A stretch of DNA of 64,000 nt from assembly GCA_038046645.1 (NCBI GenBank), contig JBBSVU010000006.1, positions 1 through 64,000 of the forward strand, written 5' to 3'. The notes below the pieces were generated by a model that searched no databases, was not told where the DNA came from, and saw nothing but the letters and a program-made list of their open reading frames with translations. A program made the translations under genes and the position numbers. Positions 8,137-55,850 of this stretch are shown here, piece by piece; within the stretch, counting starts at the first letter, position 1; the number at the start of each line of letters is the position of its first letter. This DNA comes from an archaeon (lineage in GTDB: Archaea; Iainarchaeota; Iainarchaeia; Iainarchaeales; 0-14-0-20-34-12).

Positions 8137-8350
8137 TCTTTCTTTTAATACAATTAAAATTCTTATGAATTTTAATGTACACTAAAATCCTTTGGATTTT
8201 AGTTGTAACCTACTTTTTCTTTCTCTTTTCTTTCGGCAACCCATATTTTCTTTTCTCTTTTTCTTTTGACAGCCTATATTTTCTTTTTCTCTTCCTAAGA
8301 GAAAAAGAAAAGACGGAGTTCAGGGGAAATCTACTCTTCCAAAGCATTTA
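8137..8350. repeat. dispersed modular hairpin/pyrimidine-rich repeat, copy A
   Basis: 8199-8350 is the exact reverse complement of 27714-27865; 8137-8201 matches 27956-28020 with 2 mismatches. Confidence 0.9.
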
Positions 8351-8354
8351 AATG
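8319..8354 (+). promoter_or_regulatory. 27-bp box TTCAGGGGAAATCTACTCTTCCAAAGC plus TATA (TTTAAAT), copy 1
   Basis: Identical box at 27719-27745 (-) and 55813-55839 (+), each followed by a TATA-like sequence. Confidence 0.6.
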
Positions 8355-8388
8355 CTAGAAAAAAGCAAGGTGTTTGGGGGGGTAATAT

Positions 8389-8652
8389 ATGGTAAAACCT
8401 GTCGTAAAATATTCTATAGGAGTAATAAATGTAGCAGTATGGGAAAATGAAGGCAAGGAAGGGACTAAATTCAATACAGTTACAATTAATAGAAGGTATA
8501 AAGATAAGGATGAAACCTGGAAAAGCAGCAATTCATTAAGGGTAAATGACATACCAAAAGCAATTATGGTTTTAAACAAAGCCTATGAAACACTTGCAGT
8601 GAAGCAACACCTAGGAACTGAGTTTGAACAAACAGAAGAAAACAATGTTTAA
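8389..8652 (+). CDS. small hypothetical protein, possibly a PC4/SpoVG-like single-stranded nucleic-acid binder
   Basis: Beta-rich AVWEN...RRYKDKD.WKSSNS then a helix and acidic tail; GGGGGGT RBS. The fold is an inference. Confidence 0.6.
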   Translation: MVKPVVKYSIGVINVAVWENEGKEGTKFNTVTINRRYKDKDETWKSSNSLRVNDIPKAIMVLNKAYETLAVKQHLGTEFEQTEENNV

Positions 8653-8690
8653 TAACTAAAGCAGGGATAAGTACTCTAAACAATAATCTA

Positions 8691-10829
8691 TTGATAATAA
8701 TGTCAAACCAGATAAATCAGGAACAGCTCCTAACTAAAGTTCTAGAAATAAATGGGTTTAAAGAATTAAACCCAGTGCAAAAAGAAGCTTTTGAAAAGGG
8801 TGCGTTCAGCAAAAACATTATTATTTCTTCTCCAACGAGCAGTGGTAAAACCCTTGTTGCAGAAATTTCCGCATTAAATGTGATTCTTAATAAGGGCAAA
8901 AAGATTATGTATACCTGCCCGTTGAAAGCCCTTGCTTTTGAGCATTTTTCCGAATTCAAATCAAAATATTCAAGAAAATTTAAAATAAAAGCTGCGCTAA
9001 GCACTGGTGACTTAGATTCTTCAAGCAAATATTTGAACAATTATGATGCAATATTTACCACTTATGAAAAGATAGATTCATTGATACGGCATGAGTCTTC
9101 TTGGTTAAACCAAGTAGGATTGCTTGTAGTAGATGAGATACATGAAATAGGGACAAATAGAGGCGCTACCTTAGAAATAGTGATATCTAAATTAAAGATA
9201 CTCAATCCAGAACTACAAATAATTGCACTTTCAGCAACCATGCCTAACCTAAATGAAATATCATCCTGGTTAAATGCTAATTATGTTAAAAGCGATTTTA
9301 GGCCTGTAAACTTGAAAGAAGGAATTCTCTTTGAAAATTCAATTGAATTTAAAGATGGTTCTTTGGAAGAAATAGGCATTATTGATGAATCACTTGAAAA
9401 TATAATTGAAAATACTTTAACAAAAAAAGAAAAACAATGCTTGGTTTCAGTAAATTCAAGAAAAAGCGCTGTTTCTTATGCAAAAAAACTTTCAACAATT
9501 ACTGAAAAGGCACTCAATAAAAAAAATCAAAAAGCTCTTGAAAAATGTTCTGAAAAAATATTGAGTATTTTAGAGCCGCCCACCGAACAATGTAAATTAA
9601 TTGCTGACTTAGTAAAAAGTGGCGTGGCATTCCACCATGCCGGCATAATGAGAAAACAATTAAAAGAAATAGAAGCTTGTTTTAAAGAAAAAAACATCAA
9701 AGTTATTGTTGCTACCCCGACATTAAACTTAGGGGTTAATATTCCCGCGTATCGGGTAATAATCCCTTCAACATACCGTTATTCTGAGCAAGGAATGGTC
9801 CCTATTTCAGTAAGGGAATACCATCAGATAATAGGCAGGGCTGGAAGGCCAAAGTATGATAGTGAAGGGCAAGGAATATTAATTGCAAAAAATGAAAATG
9901 ATAAGCAAAGGCTTATTGAAAATTATTTGTTCGGTTCAGATGAAGAAGTGCTATCCCAATTAGGATTCATGCCCGTGCTAAGAATGCATATCCTCGGGTT
10001 AATTTCAACAAATTTTATAAATGATTTTGAAACAACAAGGAATTTTTTTGCAAAAACACTGTATGCCAAGCAGTATGAAGACTTATCCTCATTAGAAAAC
10101 AAATTAAAATCAATTATTGAAGAATTAAATGAATTGAAATTTATTGAAATAATTGATAATAAATTCAAAATAACCCTGCTTGGAAAAAGGGTCTCAGAAC
10201 TTTATTTAGATCCATTATCCGCAAAAAACATAATTGACTGCATCCCAAAAATAAACAATGAAAGTTCTGCTATGTTTACGATTTCAAATACTGGTGAGTT
10301 TTCACCATGGTTTTTAGTAGGCAAGATAAGAGAATCTGAAATACTTATAAAAATGTTTGAAAATAAACAGTTACTGCCAATATCTGTTGAAGAACAGCAA
10401 ATGTGGGATATTAACTTATTACAAAAATATTATTCCTCACTTTTAATTTTGGATTGGATAAATGAAAAAGCTGAGCAAGACCTGCTTGAACAGTATAACA
10501 TACAACCAGGCATTTTGCACAGCAAACTGCTTATTTGTGATTGGATAGCTTACGCAATACAAGAATTGGCCAAAATACTTAACATGGATGAAAAGGCAGC
10601 TTATTTTTCACAAATTAGAAAAAGATTAAAATATGGCATAAAATCAGAATTAGTTGAATTAGTTGAATTGAAAAATATTGGAAGGATTAGAGCAAGAAGA
10701 TTATTTAAAGCAGGAATAAAAAGCATTTCTGATTTGAAAAAAACAGACATAAAAGATGTTGAACGGGTTGTTGGAAAACAGTGCGCTGAATCTGTTTTTG
10801 AACAGCTGCACCTAAGTAAGCAGTCATAA
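8691..10829 (+). CDS. hel308: Ski2-like DNA helicase Hel308/Hjm
   Basis: SPTSSGKT, DEIH, SAT, FHHAG and QIIGRAGRP motifs; C-terminal HhH IGRIRARRLF. Confidence 0.93.
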   Translation: MIIMSNQINQEQLLTKVLEINGFKELNPVQKEAFEKGAFSKNIIISSPTSSGKTLVAEISALNVILNKGKKIMYTCPLKALAFEHFSEFKSKYSRKFKIKAALSTGDLDSSSKYLNNYDAIFTTYEKIDSLIRHESSWLNQVGLLVVDEIHEIGTNRGATLEIVISKLKILNPELQIIALSATMPNLNEISSWLNANYVKSDFRPVNLKEGILFENSIEFKDGSLEEIGIIDESLENIIENTLTKKEKQCLVSVNSRKSAVSYAKKLSTITEKALNKKNQKALEKCSEKILSILEPPTEQCKLIADLVKSGVAFHHAGIMRKQLKEIEACFKEKNIKVIVATPTLNLGVNIPAYRVIIPSTYRYSEQGMVPISVREYHQIIGRAGRPKYDSEGQGILIAKNENDKQRLIENYLFGSDEEVLSQLGFMPVLRMHILGLISTNFINDFETTRNFFAKTLYAKQYEDLSSLENKLKSIIEELNELKFIEIIDNKFKITLLGKRVSELYLDPLSAKNIIDCIPKINNESSAMFTISNTGEFSPWFLVGKIRESEILIKMFENKQLLPISVEEQQMWDINLLQKYYSSLLILDWINEKAEQDLLEQYNIQPGILHSKLLICDWIAYAIQELAKILNMDEKAAYFSQIRKRLKYGIKSELVELVELKNIGRIRARRLFKAGIKSISDLKKTDIKDVERVVGKQCAESVFEQLHLSKQS

Positions 10830-10835
10830 CGTCTA

Positions 10836-11009
10836 GGAACCCACGCCTAAAGGCGTGACAGAGTATCGAATAAGTATTAATAAAAAAATAGTTTAATAGT
10901 TTGAAGGCATATATTATTAAAAGTTCGATACTCTGTTGGGCTTGTGGATAATGCTATTAATGTTCAAGAAAACAATGCCATTGCCTAAAGGCAATGGCTT
11001 CCACAAGCC
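10836..11009. mobile_element. non-autonomous IS200/IS605-derived miniature element
   Basis: Two CCTAAAGG-centred hairpins like the tnpB end; 13-bp and 10-bp internal inverted repeats; 72 bp recurs inverted at 50416-50487. Confidence 0.65.
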
Positions 11010-11079
11010 AGACGTTATGAGTGACATTGCCATCGCTCTCCAATATGAATTTTCACTCCCATCATTGCCTGCTGATTAT

Positions 11080-11703
11080 TCATTTATTCTTAGTTTTGGG
11101 GTATTTGCAATATTCTTTAATTCTGCAAATTTCACATTTTGGGTTTATAGGCAAGCAAATATTTTGGCCAAATTTCACGAAAAGATTATTTATATATTTC
11201 CAATATTTATTAGGGACTTTTTGCATTAATTTTTGCTCTGTTTCTTCTGGCTTTTTTGTCTTTACTAACCCCAACCTGTTTGAGATTCTGTGAACATGGG
11301 TGTCAACTGCAATTCCATCCAAATCAAATGCATAAATTCTGACACATTGGGCTGTTTTTCTACCAACCCCAGGGAGGAATAATAAGTCAGCAAGAGTAGA
11401 AGGGACTTTTCCATGCCAATTATCTAATAAAATGCGGCTTAATTGTTTAATTCTAGCAGCTTTAACTTTATAAAATCCAACTTTCTTTATCAATTTTTTT
11501 ATGTTTTTTAAATCAGCCCCTGCCAATTTTTCCGCTGTTGGATATTTCTCAAACAAAGAATCTGCGGCCTTTTTTGTTGTTTCATCCCTTGTCCTTGCAC
11601 TTAGAACAGTCGAAACCAGAACCTTAAAATCAGAATTATATTTGAGTATTGGTTTGCTGAATTTATGTTTTTGTAATTCTTCAAAAATCCTTAAAAATTG
11701 CAT
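11080..11703 (-). CDS. nth: endonuclease III
   Basis: VLSART.DE, HhH LPGVGRKTA, VDTHVHR and the C-x6-C-x2-C-x5-C Fe-S motif. Confidence 0.95.
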   Translation of the reverse strand: MQFLRIFEELQKHKFSKPILKYNSDFKVLVSTVLSARTRDETTKKAADSLFEKYPTAEKLAGADLKNIKKLIKKVGFYKVKAARIKQLSRILLDNWHGKVPSTLADLLFLPGVGRKTAQCVRIYAFDLDGIAVDTHVHRISNRLGLVKTKKPEETEQKLMQKVPNKYWKYINNLFVKFGQNICLPINPKCEICRIKEYCKYPKTKNK

Positions 11704-11707
11704 TAAA

Positions 11708-12922
11708 TCACTTTTTCGGGCAGAGAATGGTTTTTGTGAATTCTTCAGGCACTGCCTCTTTGCAGACTGTTTGGATATCTTTCTTTGTTTTTAGTGTGGC
11801 TAAGGCCAAAAAATCCTCAAACTGCCTAAATCCAAAAGTGTCAGCAAATATATTCTGCTCAGCCATCACTAAGGGGTCTTCTCTAGCTATAAGTTGTTTC
11901 CCTTTGAAATACGCCCTTGCACGAGCTAATTGTTTGTCGGTAATACTGCCGTTCTTCAAATTATTGAATTCTTGCTCTATTAGATGGATTGCTTTCAAAT
12001 AATTTTTAGGGTTTGTTGCTAGATATACACAAAAAAAAGCGTGATTTTTATCCCCATCTACAAAGCTGTGCACATCATAGCAAAGCCCCCTTTTTTCCCT
12101 TAATTCTTGAAAAAGCACTGAACTTAATCCTTCACCTAACATCGCACTTAATAAGTTAAAAACAGCTAATTGATTATTATCCTTTGATGAAAATGGAAAA
12201 CCCATGCAAACATGGGTCTGCTCCAAATCCTTAAGCAACATGCTTTCCCTTGGTTTCCAGCTAGAAAGATTAAACTTTTTCATCCCTGCTGGTTGCTTGC
12301 GTTTTTTTAAATCTGGAAGCCTTCTTTCCACTGAATCCAGTATCCTCCTTGCGGGAATCGACGTATTTATGCTAAAGCAAAAATTATTAGGGGAATAACA
12401 TTCTTTAAAATATCTTTCAATATCCTTCTTTTTAATTGAAGAAACACTCTTTTCAGTTCCAGCTGTTTCAAAACCTAATGGGTGTTTGTGGTATAAATCA
12501 GATAAAAAATTCTGAAAAACAAATCTTGTGGGATTATCCTTTATTTCAGTAATCTCACTTAAGATTATTTTCCTCTCTGTCTCAATCTCTTTTTTATCAA
12601 AAACACTATTAAAAAGACAGTCAAATAGGATATCTAAGTTTTTTTCAAAAAAATCAGGCAATCCTTTTACATAGTAAGCCGTAGCTTCTTTTTTTGTATA
12701 CGCATTAGTTATGCTACCTGTCTTTTCAATATTGAAAGAAATCTCTTTACGGGTATGTTTTCTTGTTTTAGTAAAAAGCAGATGCTCAATGAAGTGGGCA
12801 ACTCCAGCATATCTTTCTTCTTCCAATGCAGACCCAAAAGGTATATTTGCTAATGTCACTGTGCTGTATTTTGAAGAATCATAAAGTAGCTTAGCCCCAG
12901 ATTCTAGCTGAAACACATTCAT
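11708..12922 (-). CDS. M16 (pitrilysin-family) zinc peptidase
   Basis: HFIEH (HxxEH), NAYT and LFQELREKRGLCY motifs. Confidence 0.9.
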   Translation of the reverse strand: MNVFQLESGAKLLYDSSKYSTVTLANIPFGSALEEERYAGVAHFIEHLLFTKTRKHTRKEISFNIEKTGSITNAYTKKEATAYYVKGLPDFFEKNLDILFDCLFNSVFDKKEIETERKIILSEITEIKDNPTRFVFQNFLSDLYHKHPLGFETAGTEKSVSSIKKKDIERYFKECYSPNNFCFSINTSIPARRILDSVERRLPDLKKRKQPAGMKKFNLSSWKPRESMLLKDLEQTHVCMGFPFSSKDNNQLAVFNLLSAMLGEGLSSVLFQELREKRGLCYDVHSFVDGDKNHAFFCVYLATNPKNYLKAIHLIEQEFNNLKNGSITDKQLARARAYFKGKQLIAREDPLVMAEQNIFADTFGFRQFEDFLALATLKTKKDIQTVCKEAVPEEFTKTILCPKK

Positions 12923-12940
12923 AAAAACAACTATAGATAA

Positions 12941-15722: not shown

Positions 15723-16068
15723 ATTTACCTTATTGATAGTAATTACTTAAAAATATTACGGTAATTACCTTATTGCCCCCAAACGCCACATATCTCTAAA
15801 GTAAGTGCTTTTTTATGCATTTTTATTTACCCACGCAACCCGCCTTAGTTTGATTTAATATTAAAAAACAAAGTAATTGATTTTTCATTAATGAAAAATC
15901 ATCCCCTTGTTAGAAATCTAGTCTATTTTTTGAAAGTAATGATCCGTTTTTTATGTTTTTATCCCTTATCTTTAGGTTAGGACGTACCTAAAATCAGAGT
16001 AATTGTTAATTTTAATATACTTTATTAAAAAAATCTACCATGGCCCATAAAATTAGAAAGTAATGGTA

Positions 16069-16158
16069 TAGCGGAGGAAGGATTTGAACCTTCGACCTTC
16101 GGGTTTCCAACATTAAAGTTATGAGCCCGACGGGCACTCCTGGCTGCCCTACCCCGCT
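16069..16158 (-). tRNA. initiator tRNA-Met(CAT) with a 15-nt intron at 37/38 (16105-16119)
   Basis: A1-T72 pair, GGG/CCC anticodon stem, TTCAAAT T-loop. Confidence 0.92.
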
Positions 16159-16329
16159 ATTTTTCAGTAAATATAAGGACAAAAACGGTAGTATTCTATT
16201 TTAATCGTTCTAAATTTACGTGTTTTACTAATCCTTGTTGCTTTTTATCCTTTTATTTAATAAAAAAGGAAAATACTCCTTTTTAAAGTTTAATTATTAA
16301 TTCTAAAATACATCCAAGTTTATGTGTTT

Positions 16330-18772: not shown

Positions 18773-18812
18773 CGTTTTTAAATACTATCCTAAAAGGTTA
18801 TTTGTACAAAAT

Positions 18813-18885
18813 GGGCCCGTAGCTCAGTTGGCAGAGCACTGGACTTTTAATCCAGGTGTCAGGGGTTCAAATCCCCTCGGGCTCG
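18813..18885 (+). tRNA. tRNA-Lys(TTT)
   Basis: GGGCCCG/CGGGCTC acceptor stem; CTTTTAA anticodon loop. Confidence 0.95.
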
Positions 18886-19863: not shown

Positions 19864-21732
19864 TTAAATTCTTTCTGCCTGCTTAACTATTGGTATTCTA
19901 TTTATGTCTGATAAAATCTGTTTTAGTTGGTCGCTTTTTGGCATATCTAGTTCTAATTCTATTTTAACGAGGTTTCCACTCTCATAATTTGCTTTTGTCG
20001 TTTTTACTAAAGATTTGTTGCGCTCAATTATTTTTAGTATGTCTGGGAGAAGATGAGGATAATCTACTGCAGTTAATGCAATCTTAGTGGAATATGTCTT
20101 TTCTTTCAAGCCCCCGAGCAAAAAGGGAGCTAATTTACTAATATCGCTTTTTATCCCTGTACAGTCTTTTCTATGTATTGTTGCTTTTCTTTTTGTTGTT
20201 TTATATGAAACAACAATATCCCCCGGCAGTGGGTTACAACATTTTGCCAGCCTTATTTTTTCATATGGGTTTAAGATTTTCATTTTATCTTCTTTTTGTT
20301 TTATCCCACCTAAAGACATGCCTAATTTTTTCCTGATTTTCATCCTTGCTCTATCCGTTTTTACAAAGTTTATCCATTGTTTTTTTATTTCATCCTTTTC
20401 CCCCTTTAATATTTCTACTGCATCCCCATTTACTAGCTCATAATCCAAGCCAACAGGTTTTTTATTTACTAGCACTTTTTTGCATTTGCTCCCTAAATCA
20501 GTGTGTATTTCAAAAGCAAAATCTAAAGCAGTACTGCCTGCCGGCAAAAGTACAACATCATTCTTTGGGGTAACAACAAATATTTTATTAGTCCCAAATT
20601 CAATCTTTAATGATTCAAGCATGTTGCTTTTTGCCTTCCAATTCATTATTTGTTTTGCTAAAATAAGTTTTTTGTCAAAGAAAGGGTCTCTCCAGAATTT
20701 TTTATACTGCCAGTGTGCGGCAAGCCCATCTTCAGCATCTTGGTGCATATCATAAGTCCTTATTTGTATTTCTACTTTATTTTTTCCCCAGCCTATTACT
20801 GTGTGAATGGACCGATACCTATTTGATTTTGGGTGTGCAATATAATCATCAAAATGTGGAAATTGGTTATATGCCCCATGAATTATCCCTAATATTGTGT
20901 AGCACTCCTCTACGCTATTGCATATCACCCTTATGCCTAGTAAATCTGCCAAGTCAGAGACCTTTTTCCCTTGTGATTGTGTTTTTTTGAAGATGCTATA
21001 AAAGCTTTTAGGCCTTCCATAAATAGTTGCTTCAATACCCTGCTGTTTTAATTTTTCATTCAAATCTACAATTATTTCCTTTATTACCTTCTCTCTTTTT
21101 TCCCGCGTTTCCACAATTTCTTTTTTAATTGAGTAATATGCTTCGGGATTTAATATTTTGAAGCTTAAATCCCTAAGCTCCCAAGATATTTCATATAACC
21201 CTAATTTATGCGCAATTGGGGCGTATACCTCTTCAGTCAGTTTTGCTAATTCATAAGTTTTTTGCTTTGGCATGTTTTGGGTATTCCTTAGATTATCTAA
21301 AGCCCCCGCGATTTCAACAAAAATAGTCCTGATGTCATTTGCAAGTATTAATATAATTAATCGTAGTTTGTCATTATTTAGTTTCCCAAAGTTTCTCCCG
21401 ATTACTTCGCTTATCTTTGCAGCTTCTTCAGAGATATTTGCTGCGTCTTTACCAACTAAATTTTCTAATGTTTTTTTCTGGTCAAGGTTGTTGTCCAAGA
21501 AATCATGAGTTAATCCTGCACATATTGTCGTAAAATCCATATGTTGCTCGGCTAAACTAGTTGATACATTCAATAAATGTGAAATAAATGGCTTTCCAGA
21601 TTCACGTTTCTTTTCAGCATATTGTTTGTTTATAAAATCAAACGTCTTTTTAAGTAGTTCTGCATCGTATTCTGAATTGTATTTCCCCAGCTCTAGCTTT
21701 AGGTCTTCAAATGATGCATCAACATATCTCAT
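19864..21732 (-). CDS. long RelA/SpoT homologue (HD-SYNTH-TGS-ZFD-ACT)
   Basis: GRPKSFYSI, DLLGIRV, DDYIAHPK..YRSIHT, EIQIRT and AAHWQYK; TGS ALDFAFEIHT; CCNPLPGD. Confidence 0.93.
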   Translation of the reverse strand: MRYVDASFEDLKLELGKYNSEYDAELLKKTFDFINKQYAEKKRESGKPFISHLLNVSTSLAEQHMDFTTICAGLTHDFLDNNLDQKKTLENLVGKDAANISEEAAKISEVIGRNFGKLNNDKLRLIILILANDIRTIFVEIAGALDNLRNTQNMPKQKTYELAKLTEEVYAPIAHKLGLYEISWELRDLSFKILNPEAYYSIKKEIVETREKREKVIKEIIVDLNEKLKQQGIEATIYGRPKSFYSIFKKTQSQGKKVSDLADLLGIRVICNSVEECYTILGIIHGAYNQFPHFDDYIAHPKSNRYRSIHTVIGWGKNKVEIQIRTYDMHQDAEDGLAAHWQYKKFWRDPFFDKKLILAKQIMNWKAKSNMLESLKIEFGTNKIFVVTPKNDVVLLPAGSTALDFAFEIHTDLGSKCKKVLVNKKPVGLDYELVNGDAVEILKGEKDEIKKQWINFVKTDRARMKIRKKLGMSLGGIKQKEDKMKILNPYEKIRLAKCCNPLPGDIVVSYKTTKRKATIHRKDCTGIKSDISKLAPFLLGGLKEKTYSTKIALTAVDYPHLLPDILKIIERNKSLVKTTKANYESGNLVKIELELDMPKSDQLKQILSDINRIPIVKQAERI

Positions 21733-26719: not shown

Positions 26720-27676
26720 TTATTTATCTTCCTCTAAATCCTCGATTCCATTTTCAGTTATCTGGTAAATGGCTTCTCCGTCTGGCAAGAATGGGGAATC
26801 AACAAGCTTTGCCACTCTTTTTGATGCCTTGCTCTTTCTGAGATATAATCGAGTTTTAGAAGCATGCCCTACTACATGTCCACCTATTGGGGCAGTAGGA
26901 TCTCCGAATAGTATATCAGGCCTGCTCATTACCTGATTTGTTACAAGAACTGCAATATTATGGGCCTCAGCTAACTTCATCAGTTGCCTCATATGTTTGT
27001 TTAATTTCTGTTGTCTTTCAGCTAAAAGGCCTCTTCCAATATATTCAGATCTAAACTGTGCGGTTAACGAATCCACAATTAACAGTTTGATATTTTTCTC
27101 CTTAATTATTTGGTCTGCTTTTTCAGTAAGAATCATTTGATGATCAGCATTATATGCCTTTGCAACAAAAATATTTTTTAGTGTTTTTTCCGGTTCCAAA
27201 CCTTTTGCCTTTGCAATACTTACAATTCTTTCTGGCCTAAATGATGATTCAGAATCAATGTACAAAGTATTTCCCCCCAATCCTCCTTTATCTTTTGCTA
27301 ATTGGACCATTACTGCTAACTGGAAACACCATTGGGTTTTGCTTGAAGACATCTCACCATATACCTCAGTAATGCTTTGGGTTTCTACCCCCCCTCCAAG
27401 CAAAGTATCTAATTCATTGCTCCCTGTGCTTATCTTCCCAATTATTTCCCTTCTTTTAAGTATCTTTTCCGCGCTTTCAAAACCCATATCAAGGGCATCC
27501 CTGGCGGCTTTAATTATCTTTTCAGCGGTTTTTTCCCCTAATTCTGCCACTTCCATCAATTCCCTTGGGGAAGCCACAGCAATATTCTCCAATGATTTAT
27601 AATTAGCTTTATATAGTTTCTCGGCTGCTTGCGGTCCAACACCAGGCAAGTCAGTAATTTCCTTTATTTCTGCCAT
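26720..27676 (-). CDS. radA: DNA repair and recombination protein RadA
   Basis: N-terminal HhH, LLGGGVETQSITEVYG, FRPERI and LAERQQKLN motifs. Confidence 0.96.
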   Translation of the reverse strand: MAEIKEITDLPGVGPQAAEKLYKANYKSLENIAVASPRELMEVAELGEKTAEKIIKAARDALDMGFESAEKILKRREIIGKISTGSNELDTLLGGGVETQSITEVYGEMSSSKTQWCFQLAVMVQLAKDKGGLGGNTLYIDSESSFRPERIVSIAKAKGLEPEKTLKNIFVAKAYNADHQMILTEKADQIIKEKNIKLLIVDSLTAQFRSEYIGRGLLAERQQKLNKHMRQLMKLAEAHNIAVLVTNQVMSRPDILFGDPTAPIGGHVVGHASKTRLYLRKSKASKRVAKLVDSPFLPDGEAIYQITENGIEDLEEDK

Positions 27677-27713: not shown

Positions 27714-28020
27714 TAAATGCTTTGGAAGAGTAGATTTCCCCTGAACTCCGTCTTTTCTTTTTCTCTTAGGAAGAGAAAAAGAAAATATAGGCTGTCAAAA
27801 GAAAAAGAGAAAAGAAAATATGGGTTGCCGAAAGAAAAGAGAAAGAAAAAGTAGGTTACAACTAATATCAAAGGACAAAAATAAAGAAACAAAAGTCGTC
27901 CTTTGATGGCTATAAAAAGACATTATAAAAGTTTCTAGATTAATGTCTTTTTATATAAAATCCAAGGGATTTTAGTGTACATTAAAATTCATAAGAATTT
28001 TAATTGTATTAAGAGAAAGA
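27714..28020. repeat. dispersed modular repeat, copy B (inverted, with about 90 bp of extra double hairpin); includes the 27-bp box at 27719-27745
   Basis: Exact 152-bp inverted match to 8199-8350; extra hairpins ATCAAAGGAC/GTCCTTTGAT and TATAAAAAGACATTA/TAATGTCTTTTTATA. Confidence 0.9.
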
Positions 28021-28095
28021 AAACTTTGGTTGCCAAGAAAAAGAAAAGAGAATGTAAGTTGCTATTAAAAATAACTGATTTATACTTGGCCTTTG

Positions 28096-29397
28096 TTATG
28101 GTAGGTTAAAACTTCTTACCCCTACTCCTAATTTATCTTCAAATGTATTCTTTCTCACATTGCCTTCTAGTTCAATCTTTTTTCCTAAAATGTTGTTTGA
28201 AATTTCCTCAATAAGGTCATCGCTATTTTTTGTTTCTAATTCACTTTTAATTTTATCCGCTTCCTTCCCAATTATTGCCTCAGCGTTTTCCCTGAAAAAT
28301 GTTGTGTCAATGCTGCCTGTGCCGTCATCTACTGTTAATGAAATTATCGCGGTGGGCATCCCCTTTTGTTTGCATTCATCACATTCCCCTGTTTCCCTGT
28401 TCACTTTCTTGCTGCACTGCGGGCAGCTGTCATAAACAAGCCTTCCGCGGTTTACTGAAAGGATTGTGCCAGAAATTTTTATTCTTGAATCAGTTTCAGT
28501 TATCTCTGATATTTTTTTTTCAACAGCCGATTTTATGCCCCCAAGCTCTTCTAATTCAGGAATTTTTTCTTCTGTTTTTGGGGTTTTTAAAACTCTGGCA
28601 GAATACCCTAAATGCAATTCAATATCCTTTAATCCTTGTTTGGTATAAGCCCCCTCAATTTTAATTAAATCGCCTGCTTTTAATTTTAAAATCTCATCAA
28701 CCATATCATTCCATGCAGTAGCCCTTATTGCCTTTGTCCCGTCATTTAGCATGAAATTTATTACCCCCTTTTTTATTCCATCTTTTTCAAAATAGTTTAC
28801 AGGAAAAATATTTATTACCCGGGCTATCACATCAACATTCTGCAACCCCTCTTTTATTTCATTTAATTTCATCAGATTATTTGATTCACTTAATATGATA
28901 GTTTCATTTGTATTCTTATCAATCTGCGAGGAAAAGCCAATATTCAAAGAAGGTTTTTCATTGAACATCGAAATATAGCAATTTTTAAGCAGCAGGATGT
29001 GATTCTTCTGCACATCTTCAAGCTCTTTTACGTGGTTATGCCAGGCGGTTGCCCTGCATTCCCCGGTTTCATCTTCCACAAGCATATTGCACAACAGCCC
29101 TTTTTTCCCGTTTTTCTCAAACTTTTTTGGTGCATAAATGTGTTTTACCCGCACTAAAATTGTAACTGTTTGCATGCCCTCTTTTAACTCATTTATTTTC
29201 GACCTTACAACATTAGCTTCCAAATCAATTCCATAATCCTTTGCAACCATAAATGCTGCGCCTTCCTTGCTTAAAAGCCCAGCCATTTTTTTTTGCTTTC
29301 TGTCTATTTTATCAAGGATTTCTTCATTGCTCTTGCCTGTCTCCTTTATTATCCTTTCAAGAATGCTTTCAAAATTTGCCGCTTGCATAGTATTCAA
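28096..29397 (-). CDS. rpa: replication protein A (three OB folds plus zinc finger)
   Basis: Repeated D.TG..R.T.W OB motifs; CPQC...CDEC. Confidence 0.88.
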   Translation of the reverse strand: MNTMQAANFESILERIIKETGKSNEEILDKIDRKQKKMAGLLSKEGAAFMVAKDYGIDLEANVVRSKINELKEGMQTVTILVRVKHIYAPKKFEKNGKKGLLCNMLVEDETGECRATAWHNHVKELEDVQKNHILLLKNCYISMFNEKPSLNIGFSSQIDKNTNETIILSESNNLMKLNEIKEGLQNVDVIARVINIFPVNYFEKDGIKKGVINFMLNDGTKAIRATAWNDMVDEILKLKAGDLIKIEGAYTKQGLKDIELHLGYSARVLKTPKTEEKIPELEELGGIKSAVEKKISEITETDSRIKISGTILSVNRGRLVYDSCPQCSKKVNRETGECDECKQKGMPTAIISLTVDDGTGSIDTTFFRENAEAIIGKEADKIKSELETKNSDDLIEEISNNILGKKIELEGNVRKNTFEDKLGVGVRSFNLP

Positions 29398-47276: not shown

Positions 47277-47385
47277 GCAGGCATACTGAAACTGGATTAA
47301 CTGTTATTTTAAACTGAATTATTAATTCATGCGATAGAAAGGGTTAAAAAGATATTACTCTATTATTAACAATATTAAAATTATA

Positions 47386-48714
47386 GTGTATACTAAAATT
47401 CATAAGTATATTATTTTGGTAATGAGGCAAAAACATATGCTGGAAAATAAAAATGGGAAATTTTTCCCAAGAAAACTGTTTTCGCCTTTGTTGTCGCTGG
47501 CAAGGGATAAAAAAGTTTCTTTGATTTTAGGCGCAAGACAGACAGGAAAAACCACCCTTCTAAAGCAGCTTTACTTAGAATTTTCTAAGGCTAACAAATG
47601 CCTTTTTTTAGATTTGGATGTTTTGTCAAATTATGAAAAAGTCAGCACCTTTGAAAAGTTGTTGAACACCATTAAAGTTAATGAGTATGCTGAAGATCAG
47701 AAGGATTTCTTTTTTCTGTTTCTTGATGAATTCCAAAAATATCCTTCAATGACAAAGATTATGAAAAATGTTTATGATAACTTAGACAATGTTAAGATCT
47801 ATGCGTCAGGTTCTTCTTCTGTGACTATAAAAGATCAGGTGCAGGAATCATTAGCTGGGAGAAAGAGGATTATCGAGCTTTTTCCGCTTGATTTTGAAGA
47901 ATTTTTATGGTTCAAGCAAAGGCATAAGCTTGCTAAAAACCTTTTAAATATAAGCAAATTGAAGGGGAGGGATTTGCATTCTTCACTGAAGGAGTATTAT
48001 GCCTTGTTGGAGGAATTTCTCATTTTTGGCGGTTACCCTGAGGTTGCCTTGAAAAGCACTAAGGAAGAAAAAATCGAGGTGCTCTCAAGCATTTTTGATC
48101 TTTATGTTAAAAAAGACCTGGTTGAGTACTTAAATATGGAAAAAATTCTTGAAACAAAGAAGTTGATTGAATTTTTAGCAGTGAATAACGGGCAAAAAAT
48201 AAAATATGAGGCTCTATCTGCAATTACTTCTTTAACGTTTAATGAAATAAAAAGGCAGATTGAAATATTAAGCGAAACTTATGTTATTGAAGTTTTGAGA
48301 CCATTTTACACCAATAAGAATAAAGAGATAGTAAAGATCCCCAAGATTTATTTTGTAGACCCTGGCGTAAGAAATTTTTTCATAAATAATTTCAATGGAT
48401 TAGCATTAAGGAATGACTATGGTTTCCTGTTTGAAGGGTTTGTGATATCCGAACTTTTGAAGAAGGGAACAAGAAACCTGAAATTCTGGCAAGATAAGAA
48501 CGGAAATGAAGTTGATATCATTATTGAAGGTACTGGTTTAATTCCAATTGAAGTAAAATTCAAGCAAAACCTAAAGTCAGAAGATTTTAGGGGCATTGAA
48601 GCGTTCTTGAAGGAATACACTAAAGTGAAAAAGAGTTATTTAATCAACCTGAATTTCCAAAAAACCCAAAGAAAAATCAAATTCATTTTGCCATACTGCC
48701 TAAATCTGCGGTGA
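47386..48714 (+). CDS. AAA+ ATPase, AAA_14/DUF4143 family
   Basis: GARQTGKTT, LDEFQ, SLAGR, GGYPE, KIYFVDPG and EVD..IPIEVK motifs. Confidence 0.92.
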   Translation: MYTKIHKYIILVMRQKHMLENKNGKFFPRKLFSPLLSLARDKKVSLILGARQTGKTTLLKQLYLEFSKANKCLFLDLDVLSNYEKVSTFEKLLNTIKVNEYAEDQKDFFFLFLDEFQKYPSMTKIMKNVYDNLDNVKIYASGSSSVTIKDQVQESLAGRKRIIELFPLDFEEFLWFKQRHKLAKNLLNISKLKGRDLHSSLKEYYALLEEFLIFGGYPEVALKSTKEEKIEVLSSIFDLYVKKDLVEYLNMEKILETKKLIEFLAVNNGQKIKYEALSAITSLTFNEIKRQIEILSETYVIEVLRPFYTNKNKEIVKIPKIYFVDPGVRNFFINNFNGLALRNDYGFLFEGFVISELLKKGTRNLKFWQDKNGNEVDIIIEGTGLIPIEVKFKQNLKSEDFRGIEAFLKEYTKVKKSYLINLNFQKTQRKIKFILPYCLNLR

Positions 48715-48737
48715 GTTTCTGGCAAAATAAATTTTTT

Positions 48738-50415: not shown

Positions 50416-50487
50416 CCTTCAAACTATTAAACTATTTTTTTATTAATACTTATTCGATACTCTATCACACCTTTAGGTGTGGGTTCC
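50416..50487. mobile_element. partial second copy of the IS200/IS605-derived miniature element
   Basis: 72-bp inverted match to 10836-10907 with 3 mismatches, two of them compensatory in the hairpin. Confidence 0.75.
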
Positions 50488-50522
50488 CATACGCTTTGAC
50501 TAGCTATAACTGTCTTTTCAAA

Positions 50523-51062
50523 CTACCAACTTATGACTATTACTGCAGGGCCTTCAAATACTTCTGTTCCAATAGTAATTCTTATGCTGCCTGTCGTATC
50601 TTCAGGATTACTGCTTTGAGTTAACATTACTTCAATGGGCTTTGTTATCCAAGAAATGTTTCCTGTTGGGTTTGCTGTGAATTCCAAGGTTCCTTCTAAT
50701 TGATTGTATAGGCCAGTTTTAGCTGTTTTCCAATGAACTTTCTTTCCATCCTTTACTGAAGACAGATTTCCATTACCTTTGAGCCATACATTGTAATATA
50801 TATCTGTCATTGTAACAAATTTTCCACCGCCACTGATATCGATTGTTTTTCCTCCACTAGTAAGGTCTGTGGCAGAAAAACTAAACGTGCGAATGGCTGT
50901 CCAATCAGATTTGTTGTTCAATATAGCTGTCGTGAGCAGGGTAGTAGTGTTGTTCAAGTTTATTGTTGTTATTGTCAAAACAACTAAGAGTGCAAGCGTT
51001 AGCACAATTACTGCGGCAAGATGTACCTTTCTTTCATCCCAAAACATAACTTTTTCTTCCAT
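50523..51062 (-). CDS. hypothetical membrane-anchored/secreted beta-rich protein
   Basis: N-terminal hydrophobic helix; T/G/S-rich body. Confidence 0.75.
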   Translation of the reverse strand: MEEKVMFWDERKVHLAAVIVLTLALLVVLTITTINLNNTTTLLTTAILNNKSDWTAIRTFSFSATDLTSGGKTIDISGGGKFVTMTDIYYNVWLKGNGNLSSVKDGKKVHWKTAKTGLYNQLEGTLEFTANPTGNISWITKPIEVMLTQSSNPEDTTGSIRITIGTEVFEGPAVIVISW

Positions 51063-51173
51063 ATGTTAATTATTAAAGTTTTCAAGTATTTAAAACCAAT
51101 GCTTTAGTTCGTTGATAACTTTAAACCAAAACCTTCTTCTTTTAGGATTTCTAATTCTGCTTCTCATTTTGAA

Positions 51174-51331
51174 TGCAGCCGACGGGATTCGAACCCGTGT
51201 CAAGACCTATCCTCATTTTTTAAATATCCAAAATTCTTTTCTTTGGATAATACCTAGACTTTCTTTTCTTTCTAAGAAAAGAAAGGCTTGGTTTTGGAAG
51301 GGTCTGATGCTAACCACTACACAACGGCTGC
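51174..51331 (-). tRNA. tRNA-Gly(TCC) with an 86-nt intron at 37/38 (51209-51294)
   Basis: GCAGCCG/CGGCTGC acceptor stem, AGACC/GGTCT anticodon stem, CTTC/GAGG BHB helix. Confidence 0.88.
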
Positions 51332-51490
51332 TTTTAGAGCATATACAACATTCCTTAATGCTATTTTTATTACTTTCCATTCTTTCGAGTACTGAGTATT
51401 ATCCACGCAGGGATAAACCAATGAACAATATATTTTTATTTACTCAATACCTGTTCCATATAGTTATTGGGAGTAATAAGGGGATTATAG

Positions 51491-52120: not shown

Positions 52121-52163
52121 CAGCATGTTTCCTAAAAACAAATAAAGGACAAAAGGTGATTTT

Positions 52164-53210
52164 GTGAATATTTCAGAAGCAATTAATTTCTCTATTTTTT
52201 CCTGGATAAGGAAGAAGGAATTTTTTAGCAAAGCATTGCCTTTTTGGGTTTCATTCATTGTTTTTTATGCACTTCTTATTGCATTTGTCCTATACTTCTT
52301 TGCGGATTTATTCTCCGCCTTGGCATCCAACACCTTTGAACAGTACCTTCTTACTTTATTTAAGCCAGCCTATCTTTCAGAATTCCTAGGCAAGATGTTC
52401 CTGGCAATATTCCTTATCCTGATTATAGTTGTTTTATTCTGCGTTGCCATTAATTATTTTTATTTCAAGCTTTTGCAATATGCATTAACCCAAAAAGGGG
52501 TAAAATCGCAGAATCTAACCATAAATCTTTTCATAAGGCTTTTTATCCTTCAAATCCTTGCCTTTTTTGCCTTATTATTTTACCCTCAAGACAAAAAGCT
52601 TTTAGCTATACAATGGCTTAGCCTTATTCTTTTCGTTTTTGCCATACTTTTTAGTTCATTAACCCCCGTTGTTGCAATATTTGGCCTTTGCATATTGCCG
52701 TATGCCCTTCTTGTAATCCATAATGCCATACGGTATTCACAAACAGTAACCTGCATGCTTGTTGGTAATTCATCCTATTCAGAATCATTGAAAAATTCTT
52801 GGAATCTTACTGAGAATAGGTTCTGGGAAATACTTTTTACCCAATTTGTTGTCCTTATCGTGATGGCTTTGCTTTTGGCAGGGCTAAGCTTTGTGTTATC
52901 TGCAATTGTGAACATTATCTTAGTATTAGCGGTTCAAAATGAGGTTATCCGCTATATTATTTCTGATTCCTTCTCCAATATTGTATTTGCACCAGTAGGC
53001 TATTTTGTCCAGGCTTTTCTTTTAGCTTTCATATATTCAAACCTTATTTCGGGAAAAGGCAACCTTTGCTGTGCTGGGGAAAAATCTGAAAAAGAACCCA
53101 GTGAAGAAATCGCTAAAACAGAGGAACATAAAGAAAAGAAAGCTGTTCCTAAGGCTGAAGCAAAAAAGGCTAATTTAACAAAAAATTCAAAACTCAAAAC
53201 TAAAAAATAG
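52164..53210 (+). CDS. hypothetical polytopic membrane protein
   Basis: Multiple TM helices; ESLKNSWNLTENRFW; GGTGA RBS. Confidence 0.8.
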   Translation: MNISEAINFSIFSWIRKKEFFSKALPFWVSFIVFYALLIAFVLYFFADLFSALASNTFEQYLLTLFKPAYLSEFLGKMFLAIFLILIIVVLFCVAINYFYFKLLQYALTQKGVKSQNLTINLFIRLFILQILAFFALLFYPQDKKLLAIQWLSLILFVFAILFSSLTPVVAIFGLCILPYALLVIHNAIRYSQTVTCMLVGNSSYSESLKNSWNLTENRFWEILFTQFVVLIVMALLLAGLSFVLSAIVNIILVLAVQNEVIRYIISDSFSNIVFAPVGYFVQAFLLAFIYSNLISGKGNLCCAGEKSEKEPSEEIAKTEEHKEKKAVPKAEAKKANLTKNSKLKTKK

Positions 53211-53212
53211 AG

Positions 53213-53285
53213 TGCGGCCACCGGGAATCGAACCCGGCTCCCAACCTTGGCAAGGTTGAATCATCAGCCAATAGACCATGGCCGC
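53213..53285 (-). tRNA. tRNA-Gly(GCC)
   Basis: GCGGCCA/TGGCCGC acceptor stem; CAACC-TTGCCAA-GGTTG anticodon arm. Confidence 0.93.
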
Positions 53286-53321
53286 ATTTTTTACTAACTA
53301 AATAAATTCCTTGAAATAGTA

Positions 53322-53498
53322 TTAAAAACTAATTCTTTTGCTCTTCAGTTCCTTCTTTAGGTTGTGTTTTATCACTGGATCAGTAGTTGTTTCAAGCAAT
53401 TGCCTTACATCGTCAGGGCTAACCTCAACAGTCCTGAATACCAATTCTCCGTTTTGCCCTGTTACTAACATATCGATTTTGACCTTCTTGTTTGCCAT
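53322..53498 (-). CDS. 58-aa hypothetical protein
   Basis: MANKKVKIDMLVTGQNGELVFRTVEVSPDDVRQLLETTTDPVIKHNLKKELKSKRISF; protein-like composition; below the ORF-track cutoff. Confidence 0.6.
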   Translation of the reverse strand: MANKKVKIDMLVTGQNGELVFRTVEVSPDDVRQLLETTTDPVIKHNLKKELKSKRISF

Positions 53499-53624
53499 AC
53501 ATTAAAAGTATGCCTTTGTTTAATAAAATGCTTTTGAATGGCTTGAACTGATATTCAGTTGTGCCTTATTGCAAAAAATTATCTAGGATTACCCTTTTTA
53601 TTAACAATTAGACATTTACTTATT

Positions 53625-54602
53625 ATGCGTTATTTTACAATAGTTTTGATTTTGATTGTATTTACCCTGCTAGCAGCAACAGCAAGCGCTAAATATTCTT
53701 CAAAAGACTGTTTTTTCAAAGAACATAAATTAAAAATAATCAAACCGCTTTCCTTGGCAAAGGACAACCTTTTAGTTAATGCTATCAATAAAAAAATTAC
53801 CCCAATTAATATTTCATTATGCAATTTATCCAATTTTATCGAAAGAAAAACACCGCCAGAAGTTATTGCAACATACTCAGCTGTTTTGCTAAAAGGAAAG
53901 CCAACAATTAAGGTAGATATTGAGTATTCAAAAAAAATTTCCAAAAAAGAAAATTCACAGAATAAAATCTATCGCCTTTATATTGATCCAGTAACTGCCA
54001 ATATTACTCTAATAAAATACCAGTCAAGGTTAGTTAGAAAGGCGTATTCAAGGTATGCTGCAAATTATTTCCTTTCTGACCGCGATTTGAACCTTTTAAA
54101 ATATTTAATCATGCCAAAAACCGCTATTTTTGCGAAATATTTTAACGAATCTAAATCTACAGATGAAGCATCACCAGAGCAAGCAATGCCACAAGATGAT
54201 TATTTTGAATTCCCGCAAGATGCTAACATATTACAGGGAGATGGGATACACCCAAGTGCCTCAGGGACAAAGGTAATCGCAAACAATAATGTTGCAATTC
54301 AATTCAACAAAATAGCCATAATAGGCGATTCACAGATATCCTTGCTTTTTGACATTTATATCGGTGAGGAAAAACTGAATATTATGCCATTGATTATTTC
54401 AGGCAGCATCTTTTCATTTGAAGGCAAATTCTATGGCTTGAAGGTGAATGTGGATAAAAGCTATCAGGTGCAAGGCATTCCACTTAAGCAAATTGTCAAA
54501 TTAATTAAAAATTCAAACTATATTTCCATTGAAATTTCCTCGCTTATTTCTGAGAAGGTTACATCCTGTGCAATTTTACAACAAATGTTTAGAAAAAAAT
54601 GA
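53625..54602 (+). CDS. secreted hypothetical protein (possibly the N-terminal part of a split gene)
   Basis: Signal peptide MRYFTIVLILIVFTLLAATASA. Confidence 0.7.
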   Translation: MRYFTIVLILIVFTLLAATASAKYSSKDCFFKEHKLKIIKPLSLAKDNLLVNAINKKITPINISLCNLSNFIERKTPPEVIATYSAVLLKGKPTIKVDIEYSKKISKKENSQNKIYRLYIDPVTANITLIKYQSRLVRKAYSRYAANYFLSDRDLNLLKYLIMPKTAIFAKYFNESKSTDEASPEQAMPQDDYFEFPQDANILQGDGIHPSASGTKVIANNNVAIQFNKIAIIGDSQISLLFDIYIGEEKLNIMPLIISGSIFSFEGKFYGLKVNVDKSYQVQGIPLKQIVKLIKNSNYISIEISSLISEKVTSCAILQQMFRKK

Positions 54603-55812
54603 TGCAATGTCCTGCAGCTTAATATGCCCAAATATGCCTTTAAATAACCAGGAAAAAATAACAACAGAAAACATTAATTTCTTTTTTTCACAAACATTTG
54701 ATGCAGCATTGAAAGAATCAGTTCAAGCGGCCTTTGCAGAGTGTTATCCTAAGGTAAAGAATTATCTCCAAATTATGCCATATTCAAAATTAAATGTTAA
54801 AGCATATTCCAAGCAAGATTGCCCTGACTGCACTTATTATGTCACAAATATCGGTGGAATTGATTTAACCTTGTATGAACAACAAGAATGCGGTGAAACA
54901 TTTGCCCATGAGCTTACCCATTATTTTAATTATGCCAGCTCTCTTTCCCCTAATATTCTTGAAGAAGGCAGAGCAGTATTTATTTCAAAAGACATTGTTT
55001 CTGAAAATCAGGGGATGCAATCAAGCAAGGGCATAGATTGCTTGGCTGATTCATGGAAATATTCAGGGGAAAAGCCATTATCTGAAAAGATTGGGGAAGA
55101 GACCGTTTGTGTTAATAATGCTACATCCAATTGCGGCAAAAAAACACTTTGGCAGATCGTAAATACCCCAGTATCTTTACTGACAAAAACATTTTCTAAT
55201 GGTTACACCTTGAAGGTACAGGATTATTCATCCAATAAATTATCTTTTGACCTTTTTGATGAAGCAAATCAATTTTTGGAAAATGTAACATTAAAGCCAT
55301 TGGAGTTTTTTGAAGGAAATAATTTCTTAGTCCATTTCGGCAAAATTATTACCCCATCTCCAATAAATCAGCAAATAGTACTGTTATTGATGCTTGATGA
55401 TTATAATTTACAGTGCTTTGTTGAAAATAAGCAGCAGTGCAATGTAAAAGCATCAAGCTGGCCGGAGAATAAATTTGCAAAGCTTGAAGAAGCGACATAT
55501 TCAATCAATTCTTTGAATACTGGATATTGTTTCTTCAAAGCCCTTAATTCTTTAAGTGCGGGCATTGTTAAAGCGTTATCTGAAAAAATGGCGTCTTCAA
55601 GAAATGACTTCAAGGTATTCTGCACTGAAGATTTTCTTAAAACAAAGATTCAGCCATCAGATTTAAACATATTAAAGCAAAAATACGGCCTTGAAACTTA
55701 TATTGACCAATGCAAATTTTCAGCAATCCCGGCAGCACTTTTAGGCTGCCCAATGAACCTTGGATGTTACAGCTATTATGACCCTGTACAAGGTTGGGTT
55801 AATATTGAATAA
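54529..55812 (+). CDS. Cys-rich gluzincin-like metallopeptidase domain protein
   Basis: AHELTH followed by ILEEGRAVF; overlaps the upstream ORF in another frame. Confidence 0.7.
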   Translation: MKFPRLFLRRLHPVQFYNKCLEKNDAMSCSLICPNMPLNNQEKITTENINFFFSQTFDAALKESVQAAFAECYPKVKNYLQIMPYSKLNVKAYSKQDCPDCTYYVTNIGGIDLTLYEQQECGETFAHELTHYFNYASSLSPNILEEGRAVFISKDIVSENQGMQSSKGIDCLADSWKYSGEKPLSEKIGEETVCVNNATSNCGKKTLWQIVNTPVSLLTKTFSNGYTLKVQDYSSNKLSFDLFDEANQFLENVTLKPLEFFEGNNFLVHFGKIITPSPINQQIVLLLMLDDYNLQCFVENKQQCNVKASSWPENKFAKLEEATYSINSLNTGYCFFKALNSLSAGIVKALSEKMASSRNDFKVFCTEDFLKTKIQPSDLNILKQKYGLETYIDQCKFSAIPAALLGCPMNLGCYSYYDPVQGWVNIE

Positions 55813-55850
55813 TTCAGGGGAAATCTACTCTTCCAAAGCTAATTTAAATG
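55813..55850 (+). promoter_or_regulatory. 27-bp box plus TATA (TTTAAAT), copy 3
   Basis: Identical to 8319-8345 and the reverse complement of 27719-27745. Confidence 0.6.

Follow-up and report, generated by a model that had tools for sequence, protein, structure and literature searches.

An exact promoter-proximal box shared by radA, the hel308 locus and a LAGLIDADG endonuclease gene in an Iainarchaeales archaeon recurs over 24 bases before mcm in a related species

Results

A box in fixed register before three genes

The stretch of DNA analyzed here, referred to as the window (64,000 nucleotides (nt), positions 1 to 64,000 of contig JBBSVU010000006.1, GenBank assembly GCA_038046645.1, from an archaeon of the Iainarchaeales), carries three exact copies of a 27-nt sequence, hereafter the box, that lie before the recombinase gene radA, before a gene for an 87-amino-acid (aa) protein that is followed by a Hel308-type helicase gene, and before a free-standing gene for a LAGLIDADG endonuclease (Table 1). 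A preliminary description of the window had reported these copies and had proposed that they constitute a DNA-damage box exploited by the endonuclease gene. The match scan agreed with it on the positions and strands of all three copies, still returned just these three sites when up to three mismatches were allowed, and gave no match to the 27-mer in any of 100 dinucleotide-preserving shuffles (0 of 100). Profile scores were likewise in agreement with its identification of radA and of a LAGLIDADG gene, as was the domain architecture of the helicase with that of a Hel308-type gene. The arrangement could also be read directly from the sequence: each copy is oriented like its downstream gene, sits 1 to 3 nt before a TATA-like hexamer, and lies 30 to 43 nt before a start codon (43, 42 and 30 nt for copies 1, 2 and 3, with starts at 8389, 27676 and 55870).

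The distance from the end of the conserved core (CCAA) to the TATA-like hexamer was 4, 4 and 6 nt in the window copies and 5 nt in the copy of a related species described below, which corresponds to a fixed register. The core ends 4 to 6 nt before the TATA box and so abuts or overlaps the transcription factor B (TFB) recognition element (BRE). Archaeal activators that recruit TFB, and repressors that block TFB or the TATA-binding protein (TBP), bind at this BRE-adjacent position. The core promoters were judged against a survey of the 90 nt upstream of the 68 listed open reading frames (ORFs) of the window, which has a G+C content of 34.6%. Among the other 65 listed genes, a number have a TATA-like hexamer between −27 and −43 relative to the start codon. 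Two geometries occur: the hexamer is either ~27 to 33 nt from the ATG, which leaves no space for a leader, or ~40 nt from it, in which case a GGTGA-type ribosome-binding site is present. The hexamers of the box promoters fit this pattern (−43 and −41 for copies 1 and 2, with purine-rich leaders, and −28 for the endonuclease gene), and the TATA boxes beside the 27-mer are plausibly real. The box itself contains a loose dyad, GGAA-N8-TTCC, that may be taken as weak evidence for a dimeric binder.

Conservation of the box before mcm in a related species

We scanned one representative genome for each of 185,579 species for the exact central 22 bases of the box; the genome from which the window derives is evidently outside this collection. 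A single match was obtained, in contig L001 of a Candidatus Diapherotrites metagenome-assembled genome (MAG). Bases 1 to 24 of the box are identical there, the hexamer following the core is TTTAAA, and an ATG preceded by AGGAG begins 37 nt after this TATA box. The downstream gene is mcm, which encodes an intein (MCM_N, MCM_OB, MCM, Intein_splicing and LAGLIDADG_3 matches). In an ungapped register anchored on the box, the window and L001 were identical at 24 of 24 bases within the box, at 5 of 7 positions immediately before it (−7 to −1), at 19 of 33 positions in the pyrimidine/purine palindrome region (−40 to −8), at 24 of 80 positions farther upstream (−120 to −41, for which the random expectation is 0.27), and at 20 of 45 positions past the box (+1 to +45). 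Exactly 7 nt separate the box from a perfect palindrome upstream of it in each species; this palindrome spans 15 bp in the window and 13 bp in L001, and its sequence differs between them. A second palindrome, AAAATCC-N3-GGATTTT in the window, recurs in L001, where its loop is inverted and its stem has one additional compensated base pair. Because the palindromes have kept their places with altered sequence and the box is identical, the architecture appears to be old and drifted, with the box unchanged. This conservation, seen in the one other species compared, is the strongest support for the box being a functional, sequence-specific element.

The scan of relatives that the preliminary description had suggested recovered 24 bases of the box before mcm in one Diapherotrites MAG, and no further exact 22-base match was found in the collection. 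The mcm case widens the gene set from recombination to replication and points to the two processes together, not to DNA damage alone. The same contig encodes, at 1813–2706 (+) and ~290 nt upstream of the box, a free-standing 297-aa protein with a C-terminal LAGLIDADG_3 match, which has Asn and His at the two catalytic acidic positions and a helix-turn-helix (HTH)-like N-terminal stretch. It is possibly a domesticated DNA binder beside the intein-bearing mcm. The window endonuclease is 25% identical to this protein and has no significant similarity to the mcm intein, and tblastn of the L001 proteins against the window returned nothing.

Inverted intergenic modules before radA and the hel308 locus

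Copies 1 and 2 each terminate, on the promoter side, one arm of an inverted intergenic repeat of ~250 nt; the two arms are termed modules 1 and 2. One part of the repeat pairs 8192–8350 with 27714–27872 (159 nt, 99% identity) and the other pairs 8105–8201 with 27956–28052 (97 nt, 86%), with ~90 extra nt in the radA copy (roughly 27873–27955) between both parts. From about 8199 to 8350 (~152 nt) the modules are identical. Toward the gene, each module comprises a 40-nt segment, the AAAATCC-N3-GGATTTT palindrome (8184–8200 in module 1, and matched exactly in the window by the two modules only), two pyrimidine-rich tandem repeats of 33 nt, the perfect 15-bp palindrome (8279–8311 in module 1), the 7-nt spacer, the box and the TATA box. 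The step in identity from 100% to 86% coincides with the indel and would fit gene conversion limited by a break in homology. Since the modules lie in inverted orientation at a distance of 19.4 kb, their recombination would flip the intervening segment and swap the upstream neighbors of both genes.

The ~90 nt exclusive to the radA module contain a long A/T-rich palindrome of their own. A ~40-nt segment located directly before the gene of an AAA_14/DUF4143 ATPase (47380–47420) recurs in the modules at 8152–8188 and 27969–28010, where its orientation is opposite to that of radA and hel308. It could represent an additional, divergent promoter-like element within them.

An origin of the modules as a mobile repeat, of the miniature inverted-repeat transposable element (MITE) or insertion sequence (IS) type, was rejected. 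By inspection, no terminal inverted repeat and no duplicated flank was present at 8105/8350 or 28052/27714, there are two long copies only, and the module had no match in phage and plasmid collections. An attachment (att) site was rejected as well, as the direct copies at 8.3 and 55.8 kb enclose housekeeping genes (seryl-tRNA synthetase (SerRS), S19e, SRP54, FtsY and eIF6). The sole integrase-family gene scores as the chromosomal XerA (266 bits, cut-off 220).

The third copy, the endonuclease gene and its tRNA neighbor

Copy 3 resembles the radA copy in the box and TATA region only (48 nt at 83%), and its likeness to the other copies starts at box base 1, which is the base after the stop codon (55810–55812) of the gene for a 729-aa signal-peptide protein. 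This stop codon is native, because the C-terminus of the upstream protein is conserved in a 47%-identical homologue. Past the box, copy 3 is closer to copy 1, with 19 of 20 aligned bases identical and a single 3-nt gap, than to copy 2. Because copy 3 is without the upstream palindromes, the 7-nt spacer and the other upstream parts of the module, and because its post-box bases are nearest to copy 1, it is simplest to assume that a ~50-nt piece of the hel308-operon promoter was copied to a site before the endonuclease gene, and not the reverse. The capture of the box by the endonuclease gene that had been proposed at the outset is upheld to the extent that the copy looks host-derived, its apparent source being the hel308-operon promoter. 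The gene of the 729-aa protein is itself split in the window: residues 320–729 of the public protein match one frame at 100%, and residues 1–339 match another. The frameshift near 54580–54629, relative to the public record, could mean that the gene is a pseudogene, that strains differ here or that the sequence is in error.

The endonuclease is a double-motif LAGLIDADG protein with the motifs ILGDGS and MDTDGY. Residues G64-D65-G66 and D169-T170-D171-G172 were invariant in five of five aligned sequences, so that both catalytic Asp positions are intact. Only three clusters of foreign homologues were recovered (80, 53 and 48% identity) among 495 candidates, in a word-indexed search that misses distant relatives. 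LAGLIDADG homing endonuclease genes are patchily distributed and lie in or beside a conserved target gene. The distribution is patchy here too, and the ORF end overlaps a tRNA gene; its last 46 nt run antisense over the 3' part of this tRNA gene, which was missed by default ARAGORN and whole-window Rfam runs. The 80% homologue has the same 16-residue C-terminus as the window protein, and the C-termini of the 53% and 48% homologues look like antisense tRNA 3' ends. The picture suggested is that of a free-standing selfish gene lodged against a tRNA gene.

Other long tRNA matches that imply introns were found at 51174–51331 (−) (158 nt), 60790–60892 (−) (103 nt) and 16068–16159 (−) (92 nt). The first 30-nt region of the tRNA-Lys at 18812 (18810–18839) recurs without mismatch at 60866–60895, the 5' end of the tRNA at 60790–60892.

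Genes behind and around the box

The identity of RadA is secured by two NCBIfam equivalog scores that both exceed their curated cut-offs (Table 1). The helicase scored high but under the cut-offs of the NCBIfam models for Hel308-type helicases (647 vs 887 and 495 vs 1200), and its likely ATG is at 8701. The helicase gene follows the 87-aa gene by 38 to 48 nt, and since no TATA-like hexamer occurs in this gap, the two genes probably form one operon. The RPA-type gene immediately upstream of module 2 has no box in its own promoter.

The 87-aa protein belongs to a widespread, uncharacterized small-protein family. One search returned 33 clusters, and another gave 4757 representative clusters at E ≤ 0.001, with 1168 at E ≤ 1e-10; the best-named relatives are from Candidatus Diapherotrites, and look-alike clusters in the Atlas are mostly labeled Planctomycetota and Nanobdellota. 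No match was obtained for the protein in Pfam, NCBIfam or sequence and profile searches of the PDB, and a convincing Pfam family was obtained neither with 24 aligned family members nor with another 13 relatives, of which 10 are longer forms. In the AlphaFold2 (AF2) model (predicted local distance difference test (pLDDT), 82.5), four strands are combined with a long helix, a topology like that of the PC4 and Pur-alpha-type single-strand DNA binders, which have a four-stranded sheet and a C-terminal helix. Foldseek found nothing in the PDB at E ≤ 0.001; the weak fold matches were Pur-alpha, PC4, Sub1 and a phage T5 PC4-like protein (E 0.2–1.4, template modeling (TM) score 0.26–0.41). A single-strand-binding role beside Hel308 may be considered a lead from the model, not a result.

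An 86-nt inverted repeat (92% identity) pairs 10822–10907 with 50416–50501, just past the stop codons of hel308 and of the (−) ORF 50523–51062. A short hairpin within it shows a compensated change when the copies are compared, and in the hel308 copy a 13-nt perfect inverted repeat flanks an A/T-rich stretch; no Rfam family came near threshold for this repeat. The window also encodes, at 19864–21732 (−), a full-length RelA/SpoT-type protein of 622 aa (HD_4, RelA_SpoT, TGS and ACT matches). Long forms of this protein are, to our knowledge, unusual in archaea.

Table 1. Positions of the box copies, the intergenic modules and the genes next to them in the window
Feature	Position	Strand	Remarks
Box copy 1	8319..8345	+	Before the 87-aa gene / hel308 operon; TTTAAA at 8347–8352 after 1 nt
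Box copy 2	27719..27745	−	Before radA; TTTATA at 27717–27712 after 1 nt
Box copy 3	55813..55839	+	Before the LAGLIDADG gene; TTTAAA at 55843–55848 after 3 nt
Intergenic module 1	8105..8350	+	Inverted repeat pairs, alignment, folds, palindrome search
Intergenic module 2	27714..28052	−	Inverted copy of module 1, with ~90 nt extra that have their own palindrome
radA	26720..27676	−	Pfam Rad51 308 bits; NCBIfam NF003301 478 vs 259, TIGR02236 468 vs 361
87-aa gene	8389..8652	+	Small-protein family, widespread, uncharacterized
Hel308-type helicase gene	8691..10829	+	Pfam DEAD, Helicase_C, archaeal helicase domain 4
LAGLIDADG endonuclease gene	55870..56658	+	Free-standing, double-motif; Pfam LAGLIDADG_3 42.7 bits vs cut-off 22.5
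Intron-bearing tRNA gene	56613..56729	−	Rfam tRNA 40.7 bits on sub-region; ARAGORN with introns: Gly(TCC), odd extra arm
729-aa signal-peptide protein gene	53625..55812	+	Ends at the box; split over two frames in the window
RPA-type single-strand-binding protein gene	28096..29397	−	Directly upstream of module 2, same strand; Pfam, NCBIfam

Discussion

A proposed shared regulatory site and a possible free rider

We regard it as about evenly balanced whether the box is a cis-regulatory site beside the BRE and TATA box that is common to replication and recombination genes, with the endonuclease gene as a free rider behind a copied promoter. According to this proposal, a sequence-specific factor (a transcription factor or a TFB variant) would read the box and would thereby couple the transcription of radA and the 87-aa/hel308 operon in this organism and of mcm in the related Diapherotrites species. 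Gene conversion between the inverted modules would keep the radA and hel308 copies identical over ~152 nt, with the conversion tract bounded by the ~90-nt indel on one side and by diverged TATA-proximal sequence on the other. The LAGLIDADG gene would have taken ~50 nt, comprising the box, the TATA box and the bases to the likely start site, from the hel308-operon promoter, and the endonuclease would hence be expressed together with the host recombination genes. Binding of the box by a protein and co-regulation of the genes are what we infer from sequence. The units behind the box are functionally related (radA, the 87-aa/hel308 operon and the L001 mcm gene) apart from one selfish gene, with the radA and hel308 copies representing one duplicated module. 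If the window module and L001 are counted as two independent placements before DNA-metabolism genes, we roughly estimate the chance of this outcome at ~0.02, given that about 9 of the 68 listed window ORFs concern DNA metabolism.

A more specific version is a tentative one that we consider rather doubtful. In that version, the box would be the operator of a dedicated Diapherotrites replication-recombination regulon (radA, the hel308 operon and mcm) with a footprint of at least 24 bp, and the tRNA-associated endonuclease, having copied ~50 bp, would be made only when break repair is on, a selfish gene that would thereby time its cuts to the repair capacity of the host.

Several results weigh against a shared regulatory site. 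Copies 1 and 2 are not independent of each other because the ~152 nt around both are identical; the module has been duplicated or is being homogenized, and the pair gives no separate evidence for selection on the 27 bases. The known occurrences amount to only four in two genomes, two of them being one duplicated module. A Hamming scan of both strands with the 27-mer and three 14-base sub-windows placed the next-best window sites at 9 to 10 mismatches of 27, so that the window holds exact copies only and no weight-matrix-type family of degenerate sites. Such a lack of degenerate sites is atypical for the regulon of a transcription factor and fits recent copying. No box was found before the other replication and repair genes of the window (RPA, DnaG, Hjc, XerA, endonuclease III-like and thymidylate kinase), and in the 6 kb of L001 a search that tolerated up to 8 mismatches of 23 gave no further site. 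The exact 22-base core precedes radA in none of the 185,579 species representatives, the L001 MAG included, a result that is bounded by exact matching and by incomplete MAGs. The radA and hel308 promoters of that MAG either deviate from the exact core or are missing from its assembly.

Alternative explanations

The complete lack of degenerate sites keeps alive the view that the box is simply part of a duplicated promoter. A core-promoter cassette consisting of terminator-like T-runs, palindromes, the upstream segment and the BRE/TATA would have been duplicated by recombination, and the 27-mer, as one part of it, would have been copied also before the endonuclease gene, with no dedicated regulator involved. 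The ~152 identical nt around copies 1 and 2, the presence in the window of exact copies and no degenerate ones, and the extension of the likeness of copy 3 through the TATA box to about +20 are all as such copying would leave them. The comparison with L001 is harder to accommodate, as identity at 24 of 24 box bases against random identity at 41 to 120 nt upstream requires either that the box itself be under selection or that those bases alone were transferred very recently; moreover, all three non-selfish placements precede DNA-maintenance genes. We consider promoter copying without a regulator unlikely, though worth serious attention. An assembly artefact, in which the repeats come from mis-joined metagenome reads, is given next to no credence: the source is likely metagenome-derived and the window has a frameshift relative to the public 729-aa protein, but the three copies have unique, sensible flanks with intact genes on both sides, and the core is present in the independent public assembly that contains L001.

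Three other functions for the box were weighed against that of a shared promoter site. An Orc1/Cdc6-type site, like the origin recognition box (ORB), would make an initiator paralogue the regulator, as for Orc1-2 in Sulfolobales, or would make the box part of an origin near radA. The box starts TTC...GAA, and the ORB and mini-ORB repeats of Pyrococcus have common TTCC and GAA cores according to the available part of the source (PMC1904270); origins of Thermococcales lie close to radA (PMC4640148, as far as its available part describes them), and Orc1-2 binds DNA-damage-response promoters and regulates the damage response in Saccharolobus (PMC6061795, in the portion considered here). The modules also have repeats and palindromes. 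The likeness requires a 1-nt gap, however, and the TTCC core is missing from the box. Each locus has a single box, with neither a cluster nor an inverted pair around an unwinding element, and a third box together with two near-identical modules separated by 19.4 kb does not resemble an origin. A scan of 71 window ORFs revealed no orc1/cdc6 gene, GC skew merely tracks gene strand, and the Sulfolobales ANTTTC motif is absent from both box strands, the nearest being GATTTC on the reverse strand. A replication origin at the box was rejected on the basis of the skew, the lack of an ORB cluster and the lack of orc1/cdc6 in the window, and we find an initiator site improbable overall. The box might instead be tied to the homing endonuclease, as a LAGLIDADG recognition or binding site or as a sequence carried along by homing-associated gene conversion. 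LAGLIDADG enzymes have long, specific sites. The length of 24 to 27 bp, the exactness and the GGAA-N8-TTCC dyad would suit such a target; both genomes have a LAGLIDADG gene next to the box, which lies downstream of it in the window and ~290 nt upstream of it in L001, where mcm has a LAGLIDADG intein as well; and the free-standing L001 protein, without both catalytic acidic residues and with its HTH-like N-terminus, could be a DNA binder. The window enzyme, on the other hand, has both catalytic Asp residues and looks active, so that keeping three intact targets in the same genome, including two in front of essential repair genes, would be self-destructive. In addition, the free-standing proteins of the two genomes are just 25% identical, the L001 protein has no homologue in the window, and the consistent neighbor of the window enzyme family appears to be a tRNA gene and not the box. 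We therefore judge this explanation very improbable. That the conserved block acts as RNA, with palindromes and box forming a small RNA or a 3'-end or 5'-leader element, is in our view scarcely credible. Both palindromes are perfect hairpins with altered sequence, the short palindrome has z-scores of −3.9 and −4.6, 79-nt stretches with the long palindrome and the box reach −2.1 and −2.6 on the gene strand, and the two-sequence alignment includes two compensated pairs. For this block no Rfam family came near its gathering score, either in a run over the whole window or for 8058–8400 and L001 at E ≤ 1, where generic hairpins scored far under threshold. T-runs, which should stop archaeal RNA polymerase, are abundant on the gene strand upstream; copy 3 has no hairpin at all; the box itself has no convincing structure; and its placement relative to the TATA box and start codon is that of upstream promoter DNA.

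Comparison with known systems

The sites of Ptr2 in Methanocaldococcus and TFB-RF1 in Pyrococcus lie directly upstream of the BRE, and repressor operators overlap the BRE and TATA box. The box resembles sites of the Ptr2/TFB-RF1 type in position, with a core that ends 4 to 6 nt before the TATA box and touches the BRE, and differs in being longer and more exact than is typical. Eukaryotic G1/S regulons (E2F, MCB/MBF) co-regulate MCM, RAD51 and RPA genes, and the grouping of a replicative helicase with a recombinase would be alike here, whereas the RPA gene of the window has no box; the likeness is one of analogy only. The bacterial LexA SOS box corresponds to the logic first put forward for this locus, namely a single operator before recA-type and helicase genes. 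Unlike the box, SOS boxes are palindromes of 16 to 20 bp, are degenerate over many promoters and have a known repressor.

The Orc1-2 element of Sulfolobales is, as depicted in the excerpted source, a short promoter-proximal element of genome-maintenance-related genes, ~20 to 55 bp from the start, in an archaeon without LexA (PMC6061795). It is a degenerate hexamer, ANTTTC, in a 20-bp consensus that occurs in many promoters, compared to 24 or more exact bases in few promoters here, and its regulon consists of ups, ced and tfb3, compared to radA, hel308 and mcm; the element, so far as that excerpt gives it, has no sequence match to the box (PMC6061795). Since no ANTTTC match was present, identity of the box with the Sulfolobales DNA-damage-responsive element (DDRE) was rejected. 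The seg and mob endonucleases of T4-like phages (including SegB in a tRNA region), as far as the consulted portions of two sources describe them, are comparable to the window endonuclease in being intergenic, free-standing, beside conserved or tRNA genes and dependent on a promoter nearby (PMC2790892, PMC13096335). They are GIY-YIG or HNH enzymes, whereas the window protein is a LAGLIDADG enzyme on a cellular archaeal chromosome, and, relative to what those portions relate, the window gene is distinct in that its promoter is a recognizable copy of a host repair-gene promoter (PMC2790892, PMC13096335).

Implications

No description of the motif was found in a search of the literature at the level of articles, and the search likewise returned no account of Diapherotrites promoter motifs, of an archaeal regulator derived from a LAGLIDADG protein, or of a host repair promoter in front of an archaeal endonuclease gene. 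The box would belong to the promoter-proximal regulatory elements, a class already known; it is unusual in being so long and exact and in having apparently been captured by a selfish gene. We know of almost no work on the control of transcription in DPANN (Diapherotrites, Parvarchaeota, Aenigmarchaeota, Nanoarchaeota and Nanohaloarchaeota) archaea. If a shared regulatory site is the correct explanation, an element common to radA, hel308 and mcm would be a first handle on how replication and recombination are co-ordinated in reduced DPANN genomes, and the box would be a concrete DNA bait for its factor. The inverted modules predict an invertible 19.4-kb segment, with both genes staying behind the box promoter in either isomer. 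The copy before the endonuclease gene would offer a clear example from nature in which a selfish nuclease has borrowed the promoter of a host repair gene. Such promoter capture bears on how homing elements avoid killing their hosts.

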